DNA of 64,000 bases from Mobula hypostoma. Its lineage: Eukaryota. This document shows, in pieces, positions 7,454-56,902 of this stretch. A program made the position numbers and the translations under genes. How positions within the stretch are numbered: position 1 is the stretch's first letter; each line of letters begins with the position of its first letter. The notes below the pieces were generated by a model. The model was given only the letters and a program-made list of their open reading frames with translations, had not been told where the DNA came from and did not search any database. Location: NCBI RefSeq assembly GCF_963921235.1, contig NC_086108.1:62560001-62624000 (forward strand), written 5' to 3'.

Positions 7454-8316
7454 TGTGACGAGAATACACATAAAATTAAGATGTTTGCTGGCCTGGGTTA
7501 GCATCAGTGACATCAGCAAGTGGTCTGCCACCTGCCCTCAGGGGAAGGAGAGATAAGGAACAATGGAGCAGCGTCTGGAGATGTGTAATGAAGGGACGGG
7601 GGAGAGAGAGCTGTCTGGAGCGGCTCCCCCCTTTGAACCTTGAACTGTTTGAAGTGATGGACAGGCGATGCCCCAGCAGGGGGATAAAAAGGGACCGGTT
7701 CGCTAAGGCAACACACACACGCCACCCGAGGTAACGAGACCCTGGAAGCGGTGCGCCTCTCACGAGTGGGTGAGAAGTACCAGACAACGACCAGGGTGGA
7801 AAGGTATGATCAGCGGGAACCCGGTGTGTGTCTGCCCTTGCCTGGGTGCTGGGTTCACTGCAGAGGATCGACCGCATCTGGAGGAGGGGTCACAGTCGGT
7901 GACCTCAGGTGACATCACCAAGGACCCGCCCAAAAGCTGCTTGTGAGCCATCTCGCCGGTCTGTGAGTGAAGCCGTTCTGAATGATCAGTTGTTCCCGTT
8001 CTATCTCTCTCTTCCCCCCACGTTGTCCATCGCCAGGGCAATGATTACTGCGAACCGAACTACTAAACTGGACTGAACTTTGAGTCACTTTTAAATTTGG
8101 TCATTTACCCCTAGACAACGATAGAGCTTGATTGATGCTGTTATCTTAATTCTGTGCACATGTGTGGTTATCATTGTTGAACTGTTGCATTTATTATCCT
8201 TTCGATTACTGTGTTGCTTGTTTCTTTAATAAAACTTTCTTAGTTCTAGTACTCCAGACTCCAACTGAGTGATCCATTTCTGCTGGTTTGGCAACCCAGT
8301 TACGGGGTACGTAACA
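7454..8316 (+). mobile_element. Solo LTR, same family as the element at 39365-44183
   Basis: TG...CA ends (tgtgacg...cgtaaca), 4-bp TSD TACC (7450-7453 / 8317-8320), colinear with the reverse complement of 39365-40201. Confidence 0.95.
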
Positions 8317-16215: not shown

Positions 16216-16553
16216 GTAGATAAAGAAACAGGAAGCAGAATGCAATCAACCCAGACCACACATATCTCTTCCCCTGGCTTCCTCTCAGATCCCAATTGTC
16301 TCCATACCAGTGCCCAACCCCACATTGTTCCCAGCCTCCTCTCTTGACACCAAGATTGTTTTCCAGCCTCCTCCCACTGTCTCTGCCCTACAACTACCAA
16401 TCCCTACTTTCTCCAGTCCCACTGCTCTCCAGGATCTTTTCTTGTAGCATCAAGACATTCTTGCACATATCAGTAATGCTAGAAGATAAACTTGACAGGC
16501 AGTGCATTTAAACTCCTTTGATCTTTGTCCTGGTGATATCTGGAAAAAAAAGA

Positions 16554-17710
<1,157 letters not shown>

Positions 17711-17845
17711 AGCACTTTGAGCTGGGCTGCCAAGCAATCCCCTGATTCAATCCTGGGACAATTTATCCTGACCAATTGACCTACCAACTGGCACGTCTTT
17801 GGACTGTGGGAGGAAACCGGAGAACCCGCAGGAAACCCACACTGT
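17711..17845 (-). mobile_element. V-SINE fragment abutting the microsatellite
   Basis: 'cgtctttggactgtgggaggaaaccggagaacccgcaggaaacccac' is the antisense V-domain. Confidence 0.75.
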
Positions 17846-19639: not shown

Positions 19640-20886
19640 CGTAAACACGAGGAATTCTGCAGATGCTGGAAATTTAAACAACACATCAAAGTTGCTGGTG
19701 AATGCAGCAGGCCAGGCGGCATCTCTAGGAAGAGGTACAGTCGACATTTCGGGCTGAGACCCTTCATCAGGACTAGCTGAAGGAAGAGCTAGTAGGAGAT
19801 TTGAAAGTGGGAGCGGGAAGGGGAGATCCAAAATGATAGGAGAAGACAGGAGGGGGAGGGATGGAGCCAAGAGCTGGACAGGTGATTGGCAAAAGGGATA
19901 TGAGAGAATCATGGGACAGGAGGCACAGGGAGAAGGAAAGGCGGGGGGGGGGGACCCAGAGGATGGGCAAGGGGTATAGTCAGAGGGACAGAGGGAGAAA
20001 AAGGAGAGTGAGAGAGAGAGAGAAAGAATGTGTGTGTATAAATAAATAACGGATGGGGTACGAGGGGGAGGTGGGGCATTAGCGGAAGTTAGAGAAGTCA
20101 ATGTTCATACCATCAGGTTGGAGGCTACCCAGACAGAATTTAAGGTGTTGTTCCTCCAATATGAGTGTGGCTTCATCTTTACAGTAGAGGAGGCAGTGGA
20201 TAGACATATCAGACTGGGAATGGGATGTGGAATTAAAATGTGTGGCCACTGGGAGATCCTGCTTTCTCTGGCGGACAGAGTGTAGGTGTTCAGCAAAACG
20301 ATCTCCCAGTCTGCATCGGGTCTCGCCAATATATAGAAGGCCACATCGGGAGCACCGGACGCAGTATATCACCCTGGCCGACTCACAAGTGAAGTGTTGC
20401 CTCACCTGGAAGGTCTGTCTGGGGCCCTGAATGGTGGTAAAGGAGGAAATGTAAGGGCATGTGTAGCACTTGTTCTGCTTACAAGGATAAGTGCCAGGAG
20501 GGAGATCAGTGGAGAGGGATGGGGACGGATGGACAAGGGAGTCGCGTAGGGAGCGATCCCTGCGGAAAGCTGGGGGGCGGGGGGGAGGGAAAGATGTGCT
20601 TAGTGGTGGGATCCCGTTGGAGGTGGTGGAAGTTACGGAGAATAATATGTTGGACCCGGAGGCTGGTGGGGTGGTAGGTGAGGACCAGGGGAACCCTATT
20701 CCTAGTGGGGTGACGGGAGGATAGAGTGAGAGCAGATGTGTGTGAAATGGGGGAGATGCGTTTGAGAGCAGAGTTGATGGTGGAGGAAGGGAAGCCCCTT
20801 CCTTTAAAAAAGGAGGACATCTCCCTCGTCCTGGAATGAAAAACCTCATCCTGAGAGCAGATGCGGCGGAGAAGGAGGAATTGCGA
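19640..20886 (-). mobile_element. Penelope-like element, 5'-truncated
   Basis: RT C-terminus 'SQFLLLRRICS' and GIY-YIG 'VIYCVRCSRCGLLYIGET...RFAEH...EEQHL...PDGMN'; pseudo-LTR; 11-bp TSD GAATTGTACAA (19629-19639 / 20887-20897). Confidence 0.92.
19736..19774 (-). ncRNA. Minimal type I hammerhead ribozyme motif in a Penelope pseudo-LTR
   Basis: Minus strand reads agtc-CTGATGA-a-gggt-ctca-gccc-GAAA-t-GTC-gact: stem I agtc/gact, stem II gggt/gccc. Confidence 0.7.
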
Positions 20887-21629
20887 GAATTGTACAAGTT
20901 CTGTTGCCTCCACTCTAAAACTAAGGACAGAACCAGTTTTAGTCATTGAACTTGAGAACTGTGCTTGTGCATGCATGTGTTCAGAGGCTGACCTCCAAGC
21001 CAACATTTACATTTTCAATAAAGCACGTAACAGGACAATCCTATTACTTAATATCTGAAAAAAGACACCTCTGTGCACTTGCTCGACAACACTATCTGCT
21101 GATCTTAAAATTCCTGGAAATTATTTATATATCTTGGGAGCTGTTGTAAAGTCACCGGAGAGATGTAGCTGGTAGATGTGTTTTTTATTCAACCAAATGA
21201 GACACAGATCTGAAGATTGGTGGCTGAAGTCAGTTGCTGAAGTTGTTTGCTATATGTCCTAACCCCAAAAATGCTCTAACTGTAGCCATCTTTTAACAAA
21301 AGCAGGCAGAGATGATGAAATTCACGATCGTGTTGAATCCCTCAGTGCAACCTTTGGCCATCTGAATAAAAAACAACACCAAGCCTATTGCCTATTGGGC
21401 AGCAATAATCCCTGCCCTTCCTGTACGCTTGTGAAACCTAAACTAATTGCAGTAGATATTTGATTGCACTGGAGAGAAATCACCAACAATAGCCCCACCA
21501 ATCCACAGGCAGACTAAATGAACAACTATCAGCATCCTTTCAGAACAACATTCCCATCACTGATGCTCTAATTACTCTTGGATAGCTCTGGTACACAGAC
21601 AATATTACTTGCATTCCTGACCCCCTACT

Positions 21630-38109: not shown

Positions 38110-38392
38110 GTAGCATTCTGTAAATGTGTAGTGGAGCGTGTATTCACTGGTCGGATCGCAGCCTGGTATGGAAACACAAACAACTTGTCTGGAAAAGCCT
38201 CACAAAACGCTATATATATGGTGCATTCCCTCCTGGATAAAGCTCTGCCCATCATTAAGAAGATCTACACAGAGTGCTGTCGCAGGAAACCAGCATCGAT
38301 TATCAAGGACTTCCACCATCTAGACCATGCTCTCTTCTCTCTGATGCCATCTGGAAGAAGATACAAGAGCCTCAGTACTCACACCTCCAGGT
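38110..38392 (+). mobile_element. Rex1/Babar-like fragment; left arm of an inverted duplication
   Basis: 'VVERVFTGRIAAWYG...LMPSGRRYKS'. Confidence 0.8.
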
Positions 38393-38912: not shown

Positions 38913-39273
38913 GAATGAATGAATGAATAAGTGAGTAAGTAAGCGATAAATATCGGGAACATGAGATGTAGAGTCCTTGAAAGTGAGTCAATAGGTTGTG
39001 GGAATAGTTCAGTGATAGGGCAAGTGAAGTTAAATGAAGTTTTCCCTTATGATTCAAGAGCCTGATGGTTGAGGGGTAATAACTGGTGCTGAACCTGGAG
39101 GGGTGAGTAATGAGGCTCTTGTATCTTCTTCCAGATGGCATCAGAGAGAAGAGAGCATGGTCTAGATGGTGGGAGTCCTTGATAATCGATGCTGCTTTCC
39201 TGCGACAGCACTCTGTGTAGATGTTCTTAATGATGGGGACAGCTTTATCCAGGAGGGAATGGACCATATATAG
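38913..39273 (-). mobile_element. Rex1/Babar-like 3' fragment (inverted segment)
   Basis: 39093-39273 is a near-identical reverse complement of 38210-38392 and continues into the family 3' UTR. Confidence 0.85.
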
Positions 39274-39364
39274 ATCTCCCAGTGGCCACACATTTTAAAT
39301 CCATATCCCATTCCCATTCTGACATGTCTATCCATGACCTCCTCTACTGTCAAGATGAAGCTAC

Positions 39365-40201
39365 TGTTACGTACCCCGTAACTGGGTTGCCAAACCAGCA
39401 GAAATGGATCACTCAGTTGGAGTCTGGAGTACTAGAACTAAGAAAGTTTTATTAAAGAAACAAGCAACACAGTAATCGAAAGGATAATAAATGCAACAAT
39501 TCAACAATGATAACCACACATGTGCACAGAATTAAGATAACAGCATCAATCAAGCTCTACCGTTGTCTAGGGGTAAATGACCAATTTCAAAATGACTCAA
39601 AGTTCAGTTCGCAGTAATCGTTGCCATGGCGATGGACAAGGTGGGGGAAGAGAGACAGAGAGAACAACTCATCATTCAGCACAGCTTCACTCACAGACCA
39701 GCGAGATTGCTCACGAGCAACTTTTGGACGGGTCCTTGGTGATGTCACCTGAGGTCACCGACTGTGACCCCTCCTCCAGATGCGGTCGATCCTCTGCAGT
39801 GAACCCGGCACCCAGGCAAGGGCGGACACACACCGGGTTCCCGCTGATCGTACCTTTCCACCCTGTGCGTTGTCCGGTACTTCTCACCACTCGTGAGAGG
39901 CGCACCGCTTCCAGGGTCTCGTTACCTCGGGTGGCGTGTGTGTCTGTCTTAGCGAACCTGTCCCTTTTTATCCCCCTGCTGGGGTATCGCCTGTCCATCA
40001 CTTCAAACAGTTCAGGGTTCAAAGGGGGGAGCCGCTCCAGACAGCTCTTCCTCCCACATCCCTTCATTACACATCTCCAGACGCTGCTCCATTGTTCCTT
40101 ATCTCTCCTTCCCCTGAGGGCAGGTGGCAGACCAACTGCTGATGCCACTGATGCTAGCCCAGGCCAGCAAACATCTTAATTTTATGTGTATTCTCGTAAC
40201 A
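39365..40201 (-). repeat. 3' LTR
   Basis: Direct repeat of 43347-44183, preceded on the minus strand by the PPT. Confidence 0.97.
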
Positions 40202-40213
40202 CTTCCCCCCTTT
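40202..40213 (-). promoter_or_regulatory. Polypurine tract
   Basis: Minus strand AAAGGGGGGAAG directly abuts the TG of the 3' LTR. Confidence 0.9.
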
Positions 40214-40373
40214 AAGGATTTTTACCGGGAGGTAAAAATTACAAACATGACTACATTATCTGATACATACACAATATACATCTTTAACAGTTATTTAGCT
40301 AATACAGAGAATTTGAAGCTGTCAACACCTTGACAGACAGTCATCACATTTTCTGTTCCTTTTACACGTGTTA

Positions 40374-43247
40374 TTAATAATCCCTTAGACCAGGCTCCAA
40401 CTCAGCAAACTTCATAGTGGCCAAAAACACTGATGAATTGCGACCAATGTAACCTCTCATTTGGTTTTGTCCCGGACCACAATAACAAGGGTCGTCCCAT
40501 TCCGACTCAGTTTTCTCTCGCAAGGGCTTAGTAGGAGGGGGACGGGTATTGACCGCAGAGTTATTGCAAAACTTCCTGCAGTACCCCACCATCTCCAAAA
40601 GCCTTCTGAGGGCCCTCTTGTCTGTCGGGGTTGGGAGGTCAGCGATAGCCTGCACTGTAGCTTGCATCACTGCCAGCTGCCCCTGTGTCACCACAATTCC
40701 CAGGTAAGTGACCTTCGTGTGGCCGAATTCATTTTTTCCAAGGCTCACTATCACGCTGGCTTCAGACAGCCGTATTAAATTGCCAATACACACCTCTGTG
40801 TTCATCAGCCCTTTAGTCACTGAATTACTCGAAAAATATGGGTGTTGTTTACTTGGCTGCCCTATTGTAACCACAATCACCCAACGTCCCAGTTCTTTGC
40901 ATTTCCTCGGGACAATCAAACACATGGGTGCGAGTCGTTTAATTACTCCTTCGGGGATTAAGGGAGAGACCTTATCAGTAGACCTGGCCAAAACAATAGC
41001 CTTCTCCCATCTGACCGATCCCATCCTAATCTTTTCAAAATGGTTTTTTCCTCTTAGCAGGGGGCCCCTAGCTTCATTGATTTCCACGCTAACACCGACT
41101 AGGTTTGTTAGCATATCAAAAGCCGGTGACCGTCTCAGTTCGCGTCGGTCATGATCAATAACATTTTTCCCCCTGGGCAGCCGGTAACTCTCTTTCATGA
41201 TTCCACCAACTGTTTCCTCCAGCACCGCAAAATGTCCACCGGGGGGTACCTCGTGGGCCATGTTAAAAACCTCATCCCCATAACTCTTTTGCATCACCCC
41301 CCACTCCTCATCTGCGGATACTGTCCTTGATTTCCCTTTCTTCCTTAGCACTTCCTCATCCGCACAATAGCCTACTAGTTCCCTTGTCAAGGCTGTGTCA
41401 GAGAGAGCTGTCTCTGCAAAAACCATCAGCCCCTCGTCTCGCTCCTGCGTCTGCACAAATTCTTTCCTGGCTACTGCTACGTCCGTCCCAGCTCCCTCAC
41501 TACCTCTTATCTCACTACACCCTGTCTCATACAAGGTTGGCAGAAATGTTTCAGCCAAATTCACCATCGCGGGCGGGGCCTCCATGCTGGCAGGCTGACC
41601 CGTCAATCTCACGACTGGGAACACGATTCCTCTGGCGATGTCATTACCGAGCAAGACTTCCACGTCTTTCATCGGTAATTCGGACCTCACCCCAATCGTG
41701 ACTAGTCCAGAGACCAGGTTGCTCTGTAAGTGTATCTGGTGCAAAGGGACTGACTCTGTCCCTTCCCCAACACCTTTGACCTCTACCTCCCCAGTCTGGG
41801 TCTCTGAGCTAAACTCTAATACACTCTTCAGTATTAGTGACTGACACGCTCCCGTGTCTCTCCAGATCCGCACTGGAACTGGTTTTAACCTCTCCTTCAC
41901 TGACACCAGTCCGGCCGAGATAAACCTCTCACGCCCTTCCTGGACTTTTTCAGACCTGTCCTTCCCTAGCGGTTCGCTTAACAGCTCGATACAGCCATTC
42001 AAAATTTCCGCTTTTCCTTTCCCCGTCTCCTTCCTTGGGGCAAAGCACCTGGACGCAAAGTGTCCGACTTTCCCACAGTTATAACAGACGACCCCAGGAG
42101 ACTTCCTACCAGACTGCTCCCGGTCTACCTTATCCTTTTCACTAGTCCCCGGCTTACTTTCTGACTTTTCCGGTGGACTCTCCCCGCCGTCCTGACTACC
42201 CTTCTGGTAGCCTTTACTCGGGGCAACCTTCATTTTATGCGTCAACGCATACTCATCCGCTAACTTAGCAGTTGCGGCTAACGTGGCTGCCTCTTTCTCA
42301 TCGAGGTAGGGTCTCATACCCTCAGGGACACAACCTTTAAACTGCTCAATCAGAATCAGTTGCAGCAGTCTGTCATAATCCCCCTCTACCCCTTTCGAGG
42401 CGCACCAACGCTCACAATATGTTTGCATCTCACGAGCAAACTCCAAATACGTGCGGTCCCACCGCTTCCTCGCATTCCGGAACCTCTGCCGGTATGCCTC
42501 CGGGACCAACTCATAAATCCTGAGGATGGCCTCCTTCACCACCTCATACTTCTGGGCATCTTCCGCGGATAAGGCGGAGTAAGCTTGTTGGGCTTTCCCT
42601 TTCAGTACACTCTGAAGTAAAACAACCCACTTATCCCTCGGCCAGTCCTGACTTATAGCTACTTTTTCGAAGTGGAGAAAGTACCGATCCACATCGGTAT
42701 CGTCAAATGGGGGAACCAGCCTAACCTCCTGGGTCGCCCGGAACCCTCCACCTTGGTTTGGCACGAGCCCCTGCTCGGCCCTTATCTTTAACTTCTCCAG
42801 CTCAAATTCCCTTTCCCTCTGTTTCTCCTCTCTCTCCAACTGTCTTTCTCTCTCTTGCCTTTCTAACTCTTTCTCTCTCTCCCGCCTTTCTAACTCTCTC
42901 TCTTTCTCCCGCCTTTCTAACTCTCTCTCTTTCTCCCGCCTTTCTAACTGCTTCTCTTCGTGTTCTAACTGCCGTACCCGGAACTCGTGCTCGAGTCTCA
43001 GTTTTTCAAGCTGTACCTGTACCGCGTCTCCAGCAGGTTTTTCAATAGACACCTCCCCCAGCTCACCTTGGGGAAACACACCTTTAGATACATAGTGCTC
43101 TACAATAGCTCTGTGTATCTCCTCTCTCCTCATTGTCGACTTCACCTTAGCAAGATTCACCCGTTTGGCCACAGCTATCAATTCCGATTTCCTGGCATCC
43201 TCTAATGCCTCCAAGGTCGGCGCCTTTATAAATTCCTCAACCTCCAT
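40374..43247 (-). CDS. 957-aa Gag-protease polyprotein with vestigial INT/RT/RH segments
   Basis: Coiled coil (ERREKEREL repeats); capsid/SCAN-like 'VKEAILRIYELVPEAYRQRFR...ILIEQF...LADEY'; CCHC 'CYNCGKVGHFASRC'; protease 'RDTGACQSLI...LLGND'; 'AHEVPPGGHF'; 'KQHPY'; 'KVTYLG...LRRLLEMVGYCRKF'. Confidence 0.9.
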   Translation of the reverse strand: MEVEEFIKAPTLEALEDARKSELIAVAKRVNLAKVKSTMRREEIHRAIVEHYVSKGVFPQGELGEVSIEKPAGDAVQVQLEKLRLEHEFRVRQLEHEEKQLERREKERELERREKERELERREREKELERQERERQLEREEKQREREFELEKLKIRAEQGLVPNQGGGFRATQEVRLVPPFDDTDVDRYFLHFEKVAISQDWPRDKWVVLLQSVLKGKAQQAYSALSAEDAQKYEVVKEAILRIYELVPEAYRQRFRNARKRWDRTYLEFAREMQTYCERWCASKGVEGDYDRLLQLILIEQFKGCVPEGMRPYLDEKEAATLAATAKLADEYALTHKMKVAPSKGYQKGSQDGGESPPEKSESKPGTSEKDKVDREQSGRKSPGVVCYNCGKVGHFASRCFAPRKETGKGKAEILNGCIELLSEPLGKDRSEKVQEGRERFISAGLVSVKERLKPVPVRIWRDTGACQSLILKSVLEFSSETQTGEVEVKGVGEGTESVPLHQIHLQSNLVSGLVTIGVRSELPMKDVEVLLGNDIARGIVFPVVRLTGQPASMEAPPAMVNLAETFLPTLYETGCSEIRGSEGAGTDVAVARKEFVQTQERDEGLMVFAETALSDTALTRELVGYCADEEVLRKKGKSRTVSADEEWGVMQKSYGDEVFNMAHEVPPGGHFAVLEETVGGIMKESYRLPRGKNVIDHDRRELRRSPAFDMLTNLVGVSVEINEARGPLLRGKNHFEKIRMGSVRWEKAIVLARSTDKVSPLIPEGVIKRLAPMCLIVPRKCKELGRWVIVVTIGQPSKQHPYFSSNSVTKGLMNTEVCIGNLIRLSEASVIVSLGKNEFGHTKVTYLGIVVTQGQLAVMQATVQAIADLPTPTDKRALRRLLEMVGYCRKFCNNSAVNTRPPPTKPLREKTESEWDDPCYCGPGQNQMRGYIGRNSSVFLATMKFAELEPGLRDY

Positions 43248-43323
43248 TTCTGCTGTTTGTCTTTTCTTTCTTTCGGGAATTTTAACCCAATCAATTTACT
43301 CCGTCCCAAATTCAGCGTTCAAA

Positions 43324-43342
43324 ATCGCGGACGAGAACCCCA
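43324..43342 (-). promoter_or_regulatory. Primer-binding site, tRNA-Pro-like (imperfect)
   Basis: Minus strand TGGGGTTCTCGTCCGCGAT, 4 nt inside the 5' LTR, versus canonical PBS-Pro TGGGGGCTCGTCCGGGAT. Confidence 0.8.
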
Positions 43343-43346
43343 CTTA

Positions 43347-44183
43347 TGTTACGTACCCCGTAACTGGGTTGCCAAACCAGCAGAAATGGATCACTCAGTT
43401 GGAGTCTGGAGTACTAGAACTAAGAAAGTTTTATTAAAGAAACAAGCAACACAGTAATCGAAAGGATAATAAATGCAACAATTCAACAATGATAACCACA
43501 CATGTGCACAGAATTAAGATAACAGCATCAATCAAGCTCTACCGTTGTCTAGGGGTAAATGACCAATTTCAAAATGACTCAAAGTTCAGTTCGCAGTAAT
43601 CGTTGCCATGGCGATGGACAAGGTGGGGGAAGAGAGACAGAGAGAACAACTCATCATTCAGCACAGCTTCACTCACAGACCAGCGAGATTGCTCACGAGC
43701 AACTTTTGGGCGGGTCCTTGGTGATGTCACCTGAGGTCACCGACTGTGACCCCTCCTCCAGATGCGGTCGATCCTCTGCAGTGAACCCGGCACCCAGGCA
43801 AGGGCGGACACACACCGGGTTCCCGCTGATCGTACCTTTCCACCCTGTGCGTTGTCCGGTACTTCTCACCACTCGTGAGAGGCGCACCGCTTCCAGGGTC
43901 TCGTTACCTCGGGTGGCGTGTGTGTCTGTCTTAGCGAACCTGTCCCTTTTTATCCCCCTGCTGGGGTATCGCCTGTCCATCACTTCAAACAGTTCAGGGT
44001 TCAAAGGGGGGAGCCGCTCCAGACAGCTCTTCCTCCCACATCCCTTCATTACACATCTCCAGACGCTGCTCCATTGTTCCTTATCTCTCCTTCCCCTGAG
44101 GGCAGGTGGCAGACCAACTGCTGATGCCACTGATGCTAGCCCAGGCCAGCAAACATCTTAATTTTATGTGTATTCTCGTAACA
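43347..44183 (-). repeat. 5' LTR
   Basis: Direct repeat of 39365-40201, followed by the PBS; AATAAA on the minus strand near 43430. Confidence 0.97.
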
Positions 44184-44672
44184 CTACACTCAGGTTGGAG
44201 GAACAACGCCTTATATTCCGTCTGGGTAGCCTCCAACCTGATGGCATGAATATTGACTTCTCTAACTTCCACTAATGCCCCACCTCCCCCTCATATCCCA
44301 TCTGTTATTTATTTATATACACACATTCTTTCTCTCTCTCTCCTTTTTCTCCCTCTGTCCCTCTGACTATACTCCTTGCCCATCCTCTGGGTTTTCCCCC
44401 CCTTCCCCTTTTCCTTCTCCCTGGGCCTTCTGTCCCATGATCCTCTCATATCCCTTTTGCCAATCACCTGTCCAGCTCTTGGCTCCATCCCTCCCCCTCC
44501 TGTCTTTTCCTATCATTTTGGATCTCCGCCTCCCCCTCCCACTTTCAAATCTCTTACCAGCTCTTCCTTCAGTTAGTCCTGACAAAGGGTCTCGGCCCAA
44601 AACATCGACTGTACCTCTTCCTAGAGATGCTGCCTGGCCTGCTGCGTTCACCAGCAACTTTGATGTGTGTTG

Positions 44673-54528: not shown

Positions 54529-56902
54529 GGACTGTCTGGGGCCCTGAATGGTGGTGAGGGAGGAAGTGTAAGGGCAGGTGTAGCACTTGTTCCGCTTACA
54601 AGGATAAGTGCCAGGAGGGAGATCAGTGGGGAGGGATGGGGGGGACAAATGGACAAGGGAGTAGCGTAAGGAGCGATCCCTGTGGAAAGCAGAAAGGGGG
54701 GGAAGGAAAGATATGCTTGGTGGTGGGATCCCGTTGGAGGTAGCGGAAGTTACGGAGAATTACATGTTGGACCTGGAGGCTGGTGGAGTGGTAGGTGAGC
54801 ACAAGGGGAACCCTATTCCTAGTGGGGTGGCAGGAGGGTGGGATCAGAGCAGATGTGCGTGAAATGGGAGAGATGCATTTGAGAACAGAATTGATGGTGG
54901 AGGAAGGGAAGACCCTTTCTTTAAAAAAGGAAGACATCTCCTTTGTCCTGGAATGAAAAGCCTCATCCTGAGAGCAGATACGGTGGAGACGGAGGAATTG
55001 CGAGAAGGGGATGGCATTTTTGCAAGAGACAGGGTGGGAAGAGGAATAGTCCAGGTAGTTGTGAGAGTCTGTAGACTTATAGTAGACATCAGTAGATAAG
55101 CTGTCTCCAGAGATAGAGACAGAAAGATCAGGAAAGGGGAGGGAGGTGTCAGAAATGGACCAGGTAAATTTGAGGGCAGGATGAAAGTTGGAGGCAAAGT
55201 TAATGAAGTCAACGAGCTCAGCATGCATGCAGGACGCAGCACCAATGTAGTCGTCAATGTAGCGAAGGGAAAGTGGGGGACGGATACCAGTATAGCCTTG
55301 GAACATGGACTGTTCCACAAAGCCAACAAAGAGGCAGGCATAGCTGGGACCCATACGGGTGCTGTGGCTACACCTTTAGTTTGGAAGAAGTGGGAGGAGC
55401 CAAAGAAGAAATAATTAAGAAAAAGGACTAATTCCGCTAGACGGAGGAGAGTGGTGGTGGAGGGGAATCCAAAGAGAAGTCGAGAGCTTTGAGACCTTCC
55501 TGGTGGGGGATGGAGGTATATAGGGACTGGACATCCATGGTGAAAATAAAGCAGTGGGGGCAGGGAACTTAAAATCATTGAAAAAGTTCAGAGCGTGAAA
55601 ACTGTCATGAACATAGATGGGAAGGGATTGAACAAGAGGGATAAAACAGTGTCGTGGTATGCAGAAATGAGTTCGGTGGGGCAGGAGCAAGCTGAGACAA
55701 TGGGTCTACCTAGACAGGCAGGTTTGTGGATCTTGGGAAGGAGGTAGAAATGGGAAGTGCAGGGTGTGGGAACTATGAGGTTGGTGGCAGTGGATGGGAG
55801 ATCCCCAGAGCTGATAAGGTTGGTGATGGTGTGGGAGACAATGGTCTGGTGCTCCTTAGTGGGGTCATGATTGAGGGGTAAATAAGAGGAGGTATCAGCG
55901 ATTTGTCGCTGTGCCTCGGCAAGGTAGAGATCAGTGCGCCAGACTACAACAGTGCCCCCCCACCTTATCAACAGGTTTTATAGTAAGGTTAGGATTGGTG
56001 CGGAGGGAATGGAGAGCAGAGCGTTCGGAAGGAGTGAGGTTGGAATTGGAACAAGGTGCAGTGAAGTCGAGACGGTTGATGTCCCATTGGCAGTTAGAAA
56101 TAAAGAGATCCAGAGCAGGCAGAAGACCAGAGTGGAGTGTCCATGAAGAGGAGGAGGGTTGAAGACCACCATTCAGGGCCCCAGACAGTCCTTCCAGGTG
56201 AGGCGACACTTCACCCGTGAGTCGGTTGGTGTGATATACTGTGTCCGGTGCTCCTGGTGCGGCCTTCTATATATTGGAGAGACCTGACGCAGACTGTGAG
56301 ACCGTTTCGCTGAACATCTACGCTCTGTTCGCCAGAGAAAGCAGGATCTCCCAGTGGCCACACATTTTAATTCCACGTCCCATCCCCATTCTGATATGTC
56401 TATCCATGGCCTCCTCTACTGTCAAGATGAAGCCATACTCAAGTTGGAGGAACAATACCTTATATTCCGTCTTGGTAGCCTCCAACCTGATGGCATGAAT
56501 ATTGGCTTCTCTAACTTCCGTTAATGCCTCTCCTCCCCTTCTTACCCCATCCCTTATTTGTTTATTTATTTCCCTCTTTTTTCTCTCTCTCTCTGTCCCT
56601 CTCACAATAACTCCTTGCCTTCTCTCCATCTTCCTCTGGTGCTCCCCTCCCCCTTTCTTTCTCCCTAGGCCTCCCGTCCCATGATCCTCTCCCTCCTCCA
56701 GCCTTGTATCCCTTTTGCCAATCAACTGTCCAGCTCTTAGCTTCATCCCTCTCCCTCCTGTCTTCTCCTATCATTTCGAATCTCTTACTATCTCTCCTTT
56801 CAGTTAGTCCTGACGAAGGGTCTCGGTCCGAAACGTCGAGAGTACTTCTTCCTATAGATGCTGCCTGGCCTGCTGCGTTCCACCAGCATTTTGTGTGTGT
56901 TG
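54529..56902. mobile_element. Penelope-like element with an inverted 5' part (RT on minus, 54529-56160; GIY-YIG and pseudo-LTR on plus, 56165-56902)
   Basis: 'KPVDK', 'YLLPKIHK..GRPIVS', 'MGPSYACLFVG', 'LRYIDD' on minus; 'VIYCVRCSWCGLLYIGET' on plus. Confidence 0.92.
56806..56840 (+). ncRNA. Minimal hammerhead ribozyme motif in a Penelope pseudo-LTR
   Basis: agtc-CTGACGA-a-gggt-ctcg-gtcc-GAAAC-GTC; core boxes intact, stem I partly mutated. Confidence 0.7.

Follow-up and report, generated by a model that had tools for sequence, protein, structure and literature searches.

An internally deleted Gmr1-like retrotransposon family of Mobula hypostoma with its own Gag and protease and an open, drifting pol remnant

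Why does a retrotransposon that has lost its replication enzymes keep one long reading frame open across what is left of them? This question is raised by a Gmr1-like long terminal repeat (LTR) element of the Gypsy group in a 64,000-nt stretch of DNA from Mobula hypostoma (assembly GCF_963921235.1, contig NC_086108.1, positions 62,560,001 to 62,624,000, forward strand), the whole of which we refer to as the window. A first-pass annotation, made from the letters alone, had described a recently mobile element with pol reduced in frame to non-catalytic remnants, and had suggested that selection keeps Gag, protease and a divergent tail translated. We find that the element almost certainly belongs to a non-autonomous family with an identified complete partner. 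The explanation that we favor as a whole, with odds a little better than even, is that of a partner-dependent family that makes its own Gag-protease and carries a tail whose frame is kept while its sequence drifts. The element is laid out as follows.

39365-44183, minus strand: whole retrotransposon, 4,819 bp
39361-39364 (plus strand) and 44184-44187: target site duplication (TSD) CTAC, 4 bp, inside a repeat whose reading frame runs on across the insertion
43347..44183, minus strand: 5' LTR, 837 bp
43324..43342, minus strand: tRNA-Pro-like primer-binding site (PBS), 4 nt after the LTR
40374..43247, minus strand: single open reading frame (ORF) of 957 amino acids (aa) plus stop, encoding Gag, protease and pol remnants
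42814..42957, minus strand: array of a 27-nt repeat in Gag, encoding a charged (E/R/K/Q) segment of variable length
42234..42503, minus strand: SCAN-like capsid domain, aa 249-338 (Pfam SCAN, 1.5e-12)
42045..42089, minus strand: CCHC zinc knuckle, aa 387-401 (Pfam zf-CCHC)
41568..41927, minus strand: aspartic protease, aa 441-560, DTG at 464
41157..41567, minus strand: linker between protease and integrase, with the remnant of the integrase zinc finger, aa 561-697
41106..41156, minus strand: junction left by the largest deletion, a net 888 nt that took away the zinc-finger Cys pair together with the integrase core and C-terminal domain
40836..41105, minus strand: remnant of the linker between integrase and reverse transcriptase (RT), with KQHPY at its end, then a net 384-nt deletion of the RT fingers and palm
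40486..40831, minus strand: end of the RT palm, then a 54-nt deletion, then the RT thumb remnant
40414..40485, minus strand: RNase H fragment after a 258-nt deletion
40202..40213, minus strand: polypurine tract (PPT) AAAGGGGGGAAG, adjoining the 3' LTR
39365..40201, minus strand: 3' LTR, 837 bp, with AATAAA at LTR position 749

The LTRs, TSD, PBS, PPT, 957-aa ORF and all motifs quoted in the first-pass annotation are present. The LTRs have TG...CA termini and differ by a single mismatch (39728/43710). We take the PBS to be a variant of the tRNA-Pro site; no tRNA genes were found in the window. Pfam searches of the ORF returned SCAN and zf-CCHC as the only families, with neither rve nor RVT_1, in agreement with the earlier reading. 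The protease gave a sub-threshold match to RVP (E 0.068), and the tail of approximately 398 aa matched no family at E ≤ 1. The window element lacks the intact integrase core, RT and RNase H of an autonomous element. The claim that no catalytic pol remains was correct for the integrase core and most of RNase H, which are deleted; the RT YxDD site, in contrast, has decayed in place, with the YIDD of the partner aligning to CIGN and the 54 nt behind it removed. Likewise, the fragments listed previously are all there, but the zinc-finger start keeps both His and has lost both Cys, and about 90 codons of the integrase-RT linker survive in addition.

The tail contains no stops in 397 codons, compared to 32 in each of the two remaining frames on that strand, and its openness is therefore not due to chance. 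The ORF ends 172 nt before the 3' LTR (120 nt in the partner). A single-sequence AlphaFold model of protease and tail had a pLDDT of 31 throughout, even in the protease, and is thus uninformative. The nearest proteins (95-97% identical) are named from Mobula hypostoma, followed by complete 1,500-1,600-aa relatives with integrase before RT. The ORF is also annotated under host names, i.e., as a MACC1 isoform, a phosphatidylserine decarboxylase isoform and a trichohyalin-like protein (P0001, P0008, P0009), which suggests that these gene models are chimeric or mislabelled.

The autonomous partner that had been predicted, with the same LTR ends and PBS, is present in the genome with all pol domains. 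A search with the integrase core recovered copies with 1,414-1,580 open codons; partner ORFs of 1,551-1,580 stop-free codons have the same termini as the window element. Of 14 such stretches, a young group has the LTR ends, PBS and PPT of the window element, and an older group has LTRs about 80% alike by BLAST. Over ungapped columns, the window LTR is 97-98% identical to the young autonomous LTRs and 87-88% identical to those of the older subfamily. The PBS variant of the window element is the form carried by most autonomous copies, the others having the exact-Pro form. The young partner L081 contains SCAN, CCHC, Integrase_H2C2, rve, RVT_1 and RNase H by Pfam, and combines the SCAN-like capsid with the order protease, integrase, RT and RNase H that characterizes Gmr1-like Gypsy elements.

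Alignment to this partner shows how pol was lost. The pol remnants are collinear with L081, and the large net losses of 888, 384, 54 and 258 nt removed, respectively, the integrase core and C-terminus, the RT fingers and palm, the sequence that follows the decayed YIDD, and most of RNase H. There are six smaller net offsets besides. Each of the ten net offsets that separate aligned blocks is divisible by three, and all blocks of at least 36 nt within the ORF lie in the original frame relative to the partner; the claim that the deletions preserve the frame is thereby confirmed.

The same defect is shared by many independent insertions that have LTRs and TSDs, as expected of the multi-copy non-autonomous family proposed earlier. 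A 1.6-kb query across the deleted region gave 2,617 candidates, and each of the 40 scored was full-length at ≥99%. The genome contains 1,336 matches to an exact 20-mer placed at the junction of the largest deletion and 197 to one placed in the integrase core; both counts are lower bounds, and the two markers may differ in conservation. The first 40 copies, taken in list order without selection for similarity, all have the same layout with two LTRs, and 37 have exact 4-bp TSDs. Their LTR-LTR identities are 96.7-100% (median 99.66%; six pairs identical). The frame is open to its normal end in 13 of the 40, the exact start motif is absent in 11, and ORF length among full-length copies ranges from 925 to 999 aa. 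The deletions predate Mobula hypostoma, since contigs from three other organisms cover the junctions: all three organisms have the RNase H junction, one has both RT junctions, and two have the filler of the largest deletion. Tandem arrays of the form LTR-internal-LTR-internal-LTR, with shared LTRs, occur in both families (L037, L049 and L050, deleted; L085/L086, complete). A 780-nt in-frame insertion in copy L123 was considered as an ancestral piece of pol and rejected, being a later unrelated repeat.

We used a four-taxon branch model to compare protein constraint across the ORF, with omega (the ratio of nonsynonymous to synonymous rates) estimated on the deleted-family branch and the tail represented by 309 aligned codons. 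The protease gave an omega of 0.27 (range 0.1-0.7; p = 0.018 against 1) and the tail an omega of 1.39 (range 0.9-2; p = 0.16 against 1), compared to a tail background of 0.27 in the autonomous lineages. Between old and young deleted copies, omega was 0.18 for the capsid, 0.24 for the protease and 0.86 for the tail. Variants were counted in 96 of 99 copies; L111, L137 and L161 were dropped as partial or too divergent, and L161 was then analyzed separately as L193. Those found in at least three copies comprised 11 nonsynonymous and 12 synonymous changes in the protease (p = 0.02), 52 and 26 in the tail (p = 0.26), and 7 and 18 in the SCAN-like capsid domain (omega 0.14). Private variants had an omega of about 1 in all regions; individual loci thus decay after insertion, and selection is visible only in variants passed through transposition. 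A tail omega of 2.1 from a stem count was discarded in favor of the likelihood estimate, as it was biased by requiring sites to be invariant among partners, and a seeming surplus of private indels in Gag was traced to the alignment of L111, which lacks its 5' part, and was an artefact. Fourteen cross-species tail differences (12 nonsynonymous, two synonymous, no stop) were hand-picked from 40 of 128 rows and left unused as a test. The purifying selection that had been proposed is therefore seen in Gag and protease; the tail is neutral, a result that the first-pass annotation had itself listed as telling against its view. On these sequence comparisons, there is a good probability that Gag-protease is used as protein.

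The neutral amino acids of the tail, together with the multiplication of copies that have a stop before the RT remnant, lend no support to the suggestion that the divergent tail is selected as protein. A tail that works as protein, whether as a fusion or a cleaved remnant, might still recruit partner Pol, tether RNA or interfere with the partner if only a few residues or bulk properties matter. The RT block, with omega values of 0.76 and 0.56 in two estimates, leaves room for such weak constraint; moreover, the frame has survived ten net indels, and the available part of PMC6466679 describes a gag-pol fusion of the intracisternal A-particle (IAP) that acts in cis. We nevertheless consider this explanation unlikely given the whole-tail omegas, the loss of catalytic and zinc-binding residues and of any Pfam signal, and the early stop that removes the RT and RNase H remnants in 56 copies.

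It is the frame that has persisted. Approximately 0.2 neutral substitutions per site have accumulated in the tail since constraint was lost, and neutral simulation predicts four to six stops over this time, with only 0.3-1.4% of runs remaining stop-free. Indels common to at least five copies are all in frame, compared to 11 of 33 private ones; relative to the window element, the common segregating indels are +27, +45, +21, -12, +18 and +15, at four sites. The longer alleles sit in older copies, which indicates that in-frame erosion of the tail is continuing. Because tail omega is approximately neutral while net indels keep the frame, selection is likely to act on the frame and not on the tail sequence, as far as the compared copies indicate.

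A tail retained as RNA would offer a different reason for what is kept, through packaging, dimerization or recombination homology, with passing ribosomes remodelling the RNA or coupling translation to packaging and no part for nonsense-mediated decay (NMD). The retained blocks do span the whole of pol, rather than reflecting one clean deletion, and in the available part of PMC10924933 the defective partners bovine ERVK, MusD/ETn and KoRV are described as keeping flanking segments with a suggested role in cis. The nucleotides of the tail, however, drift at about the neutral rate (branch length 0.19-0.27) and deletions continue, and we regard a role as RNA as improbable.

Several observations weigh against a selected frame and a required protease. 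A stop at codon 797, 160 codons early, has 56 exact matches versus 790 with a sense codon (6.6% of matches), where approximately one match would be expected by recurrence, and one carrier has identical LTRs; this allele has thus been amplified, and an open frame is not strictly needed. Similarly, a 188-nt deletion that removes the protease active site and shifts the frame occurs in four copies, and in the two checked the TSDs differ; protease-deleted copies have therefore multiplied, so that a protease of their own is no strict requirement. Four copies carry a 2-nt frameshift near codon 855 (a 1-nt frameshift pattern at the same place had no match). The deficit of stops among present-day shared variants is not significant (one seen, 2.8 expected; p = 0.24), the four large deletions alone support frame retention only at p = 0.012, some of the small in-frame offsets may have arisen on the branch of the partner, and the low capsid omega is partly imported from the partner. 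Frameshifts at codons 557, 668 and 927 (two to four copies each) were treated as recurrent, since they lie in single-base runs and their carriers share no rare variants. Judged from these alleles, the C-terminal tail and the protease are both dispensable for being moved, yet appear to favor long-term success as a master copy.

The exceptions can also be read as historical legacy and luck, whereby the deletions occurred in frame while the downstream enzymes were still useful in cis and the few masters have yet to fix a stop. The frequency of the codon-797 allele and the non-significant current deficit are in keeping with this account. With four to six stops expected and none fixed, and with segregating indels in the dead tail in frame at four separate sites (p about 0.012), we think it rather improbable, slightly more so than a tail kept as protein or as RNA. 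A restriction factor maintained by the host, or a domesticated gag, dispersed through duplication, to which the annotated gene models containing the ORF might point, is largely refuted and highly improbable, as the copies are dispersed with separate TSDs and neutral private variants (omega about 1) and a single conserved locus under host selection was not found.

The deleted family also has a mosaic history, which had not been foreseen. Synonymous divergence (dS) between the window element and the young partner rises along the ORF, from 0.017 in the N-terminal part of Gag to 0.07 in the capsid, 0.11 in the nucleocapsid, 0.27 in the protease and 0.50 in the tail, and the last 128 nt before the PPT are again 99% identical to the partner. 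We built capsid, protease and tail trees from 11 chosen deleted copies and the window element, omitting partner copies that lack a region. Deleted and complete copies interleave in the capsid tree, and also in a tree of LTRs. In the protease tree, the deleted copies form one clade (99) that is sister to the young partner (97); in the tail tree, they form one clade (100) on a stem of 0.27, outside both partner groups (99). In each of the 60 copies examined, the protease and tail alleles are those of the deleted family. L193, an older copy of the deleted family, shares the large deletions, yet its LTR is nested in the older partner group (96-100) and its capsid is 96.8% like that of the older partner. 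A reverse chimera (L072/L198; G000:C1:42868600-42876600) has deleted-family sequence to about codon 632, followed by partner pol at 97.6-97.9% identity; it joins deleted-family Gag, protease and zinc-finger start to partner pol, has its own TSD and is now broken by stops. The incongruent trees, L193 and the chimera all indicate that the deleted core swapped LTR and gag in step with its helpers. From the sequences compared, LTR and Gag were repeatedly replaced from the partner, and the deleted pol tail constitutes a single old lineage. The simplest cause of the exchange would be template switching in shared particles, which is reviewed in the available part of PMC6894440; ectopic DNA recombination may be an alternative cause.

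We therefore return to the partner-dependent family with a frame-kept tail. The RNA of the element would be translated into Gag-protease with the dead tail, and RT, RNase H and integrase would be supplied in trans by the co-resident complete family, with which it has common cis signals. The two RNAs would meet often, so that co-packaging and template switching could give the deleted family the LTR and gag of its current partner, and its own Gag and protease would probably bring its own RNA into particles in cis, as reported for IAP 1-delta-1. The pol remnant would be a translated spacer that takes ribosomes to a stop near the ancestral position, a soft constraint under which the spacer could still shrink through in-frame deletions. 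The spacer would most plausibly avoid NMD of RNAs whose 3' untranslated region (UTR) is long: with the normal stop 172 nt from the LTR and the hexamer at LTR position 749, termination after the protease would give a 3' UTR of roughly 2.1 kb in place of 0.9 kb. In Rous sarcoma virus, according to the available part of PMC2925335, premature stops destabilize unspliced RNA via Upf1, and one trigger that has been proposed is the distance from the poly(A) tail. That NMD or RNA stability underlies frame retention is close to an even call, falling slightly short of it. More tentatively still, the length of the reading frame could itself be the selected trait, with about 400 dead pol codons acting as a runway against NMD across several ray species and at least two helper generations, possibly with an independent origin in stingrays.

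Proteins named from the stingrays Hypanus sabinus and Hemitrygon akajei (P0017, P0018, P0019, P0021, P0023; also P0012 and P0013) have a Gmr1-like Gag-protease without integrase core or RT. They contain, in frame, a decayed second copy of the capsid end, nucleocapsid and protease (25-31% identity, up to 48% in a short piece) and may represent another pol-less family, distinct from this one, whose long tail drifts but stays open.

Other features of the window were recorded alongside the element. A solo LTR of the same family lies in the opposite orientation at 7454-8316, with TSD TACC, and groups with slightly older LTRs. Each LTR of the element contains an antisense, ATG-initiated frame of 200 codons (39577-40179 and 43559-44161). 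The repeat that hosts the insertion (39270-39364 and 44184-44275) has further pieces at 20079-20942 and 54623-55375, and presumably resembles the GIY-YIG endonuclease C-termini of Penelope-like elements. An inverted 180-nt pair (38213-38392 / 39093-39272; 96% complementary, 700 nt apart) is located just left of the element, and a simple CT/GA repeat of approximately 1.3 kb (16500-17800) gives rise to spurious long ORFs.

Frame-keeping non-autonomous LTR elements are known, and protein is usually assumed to be the reason. The more than 1,300 copies in this genome are a natural experiment that separates protein constraint (Gag, protease), frame-only constraint (tail) and recombinational refresh (LTR, gag), and, with early stops occurring naturally among them at known frequencies, RNA-seq alone could test the idea of RNA surveillance. 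They also call for caution in annotation, as a frame may be long and open, with dN/dS near 1, and yet encode no functional protein, and such ORFs carry host gene names in databases.

Precedents exist for partners that are defective yet code (IAP 1-delta-1, TR-GAG), for the swapping of LTRs and for a defective majority (bovine ERVK). In soybean, autonomous and non-autonomous pairs were reportedly described by Du et al. in 2010, the defective family tracking its partner by LTR swapping. The ray family differs in its vertebrate host, in the exchange of gag along with the LTR and in the coding capacity that its defective elements retain. The recombining "clan" of LTR elements is a concept treated in the available part of the review PMC6894440. 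Our literature search found no account of a deleted, coding Gmr1-like partner family or of a frame-kept, sequence-neutral pol tail, though most subscription papers and Repbase/Dfam lay outside it and absence from print is not established. In the available parts of bioRxiv 10.1101/2025.03.03.638093 and PMC4131045, the Gmr1-like Ty3/Gypsy elements, with the same SCAN-like capsid and protease-integrase-RT-RNase H order, are complete. Plant TR-GAG, in the available part of PMC4350172, is likewise a non-autonomous LTR element with a single Gag ORF, Copia-like in the example given; it is defined as shorter than 4 kb and without similarity to protease, integrase, RT or RNase H, whereas the 4,819-bp ray element keeps protease and pol remnants and falls outside this definition. 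The ERVK[2-1-LTR] C/D pair of cattle, as described in the available part of PMC10924933, is similar in proportions, with 15% competent and 85% defective elements there compared to 197 and 1,336 marker matches here (13% and 87%), and in its recombinants between types; its D-type elements, unlike the ray family, lack intact ORFs, and their central segment has been swapped. Mouse IAP 1-delta-1, the translation product of which acts in cis (available parts of PMC6466679 and PMC10924933), is likewise internally deleted and non-autonomous, has an in-frame fusion ORF and outnumbers the new insertions of its complete partner. In the ray family, protease and capsid are under selection, which is consistent with cis promotion of this type, yet four protease-less copies have moved.

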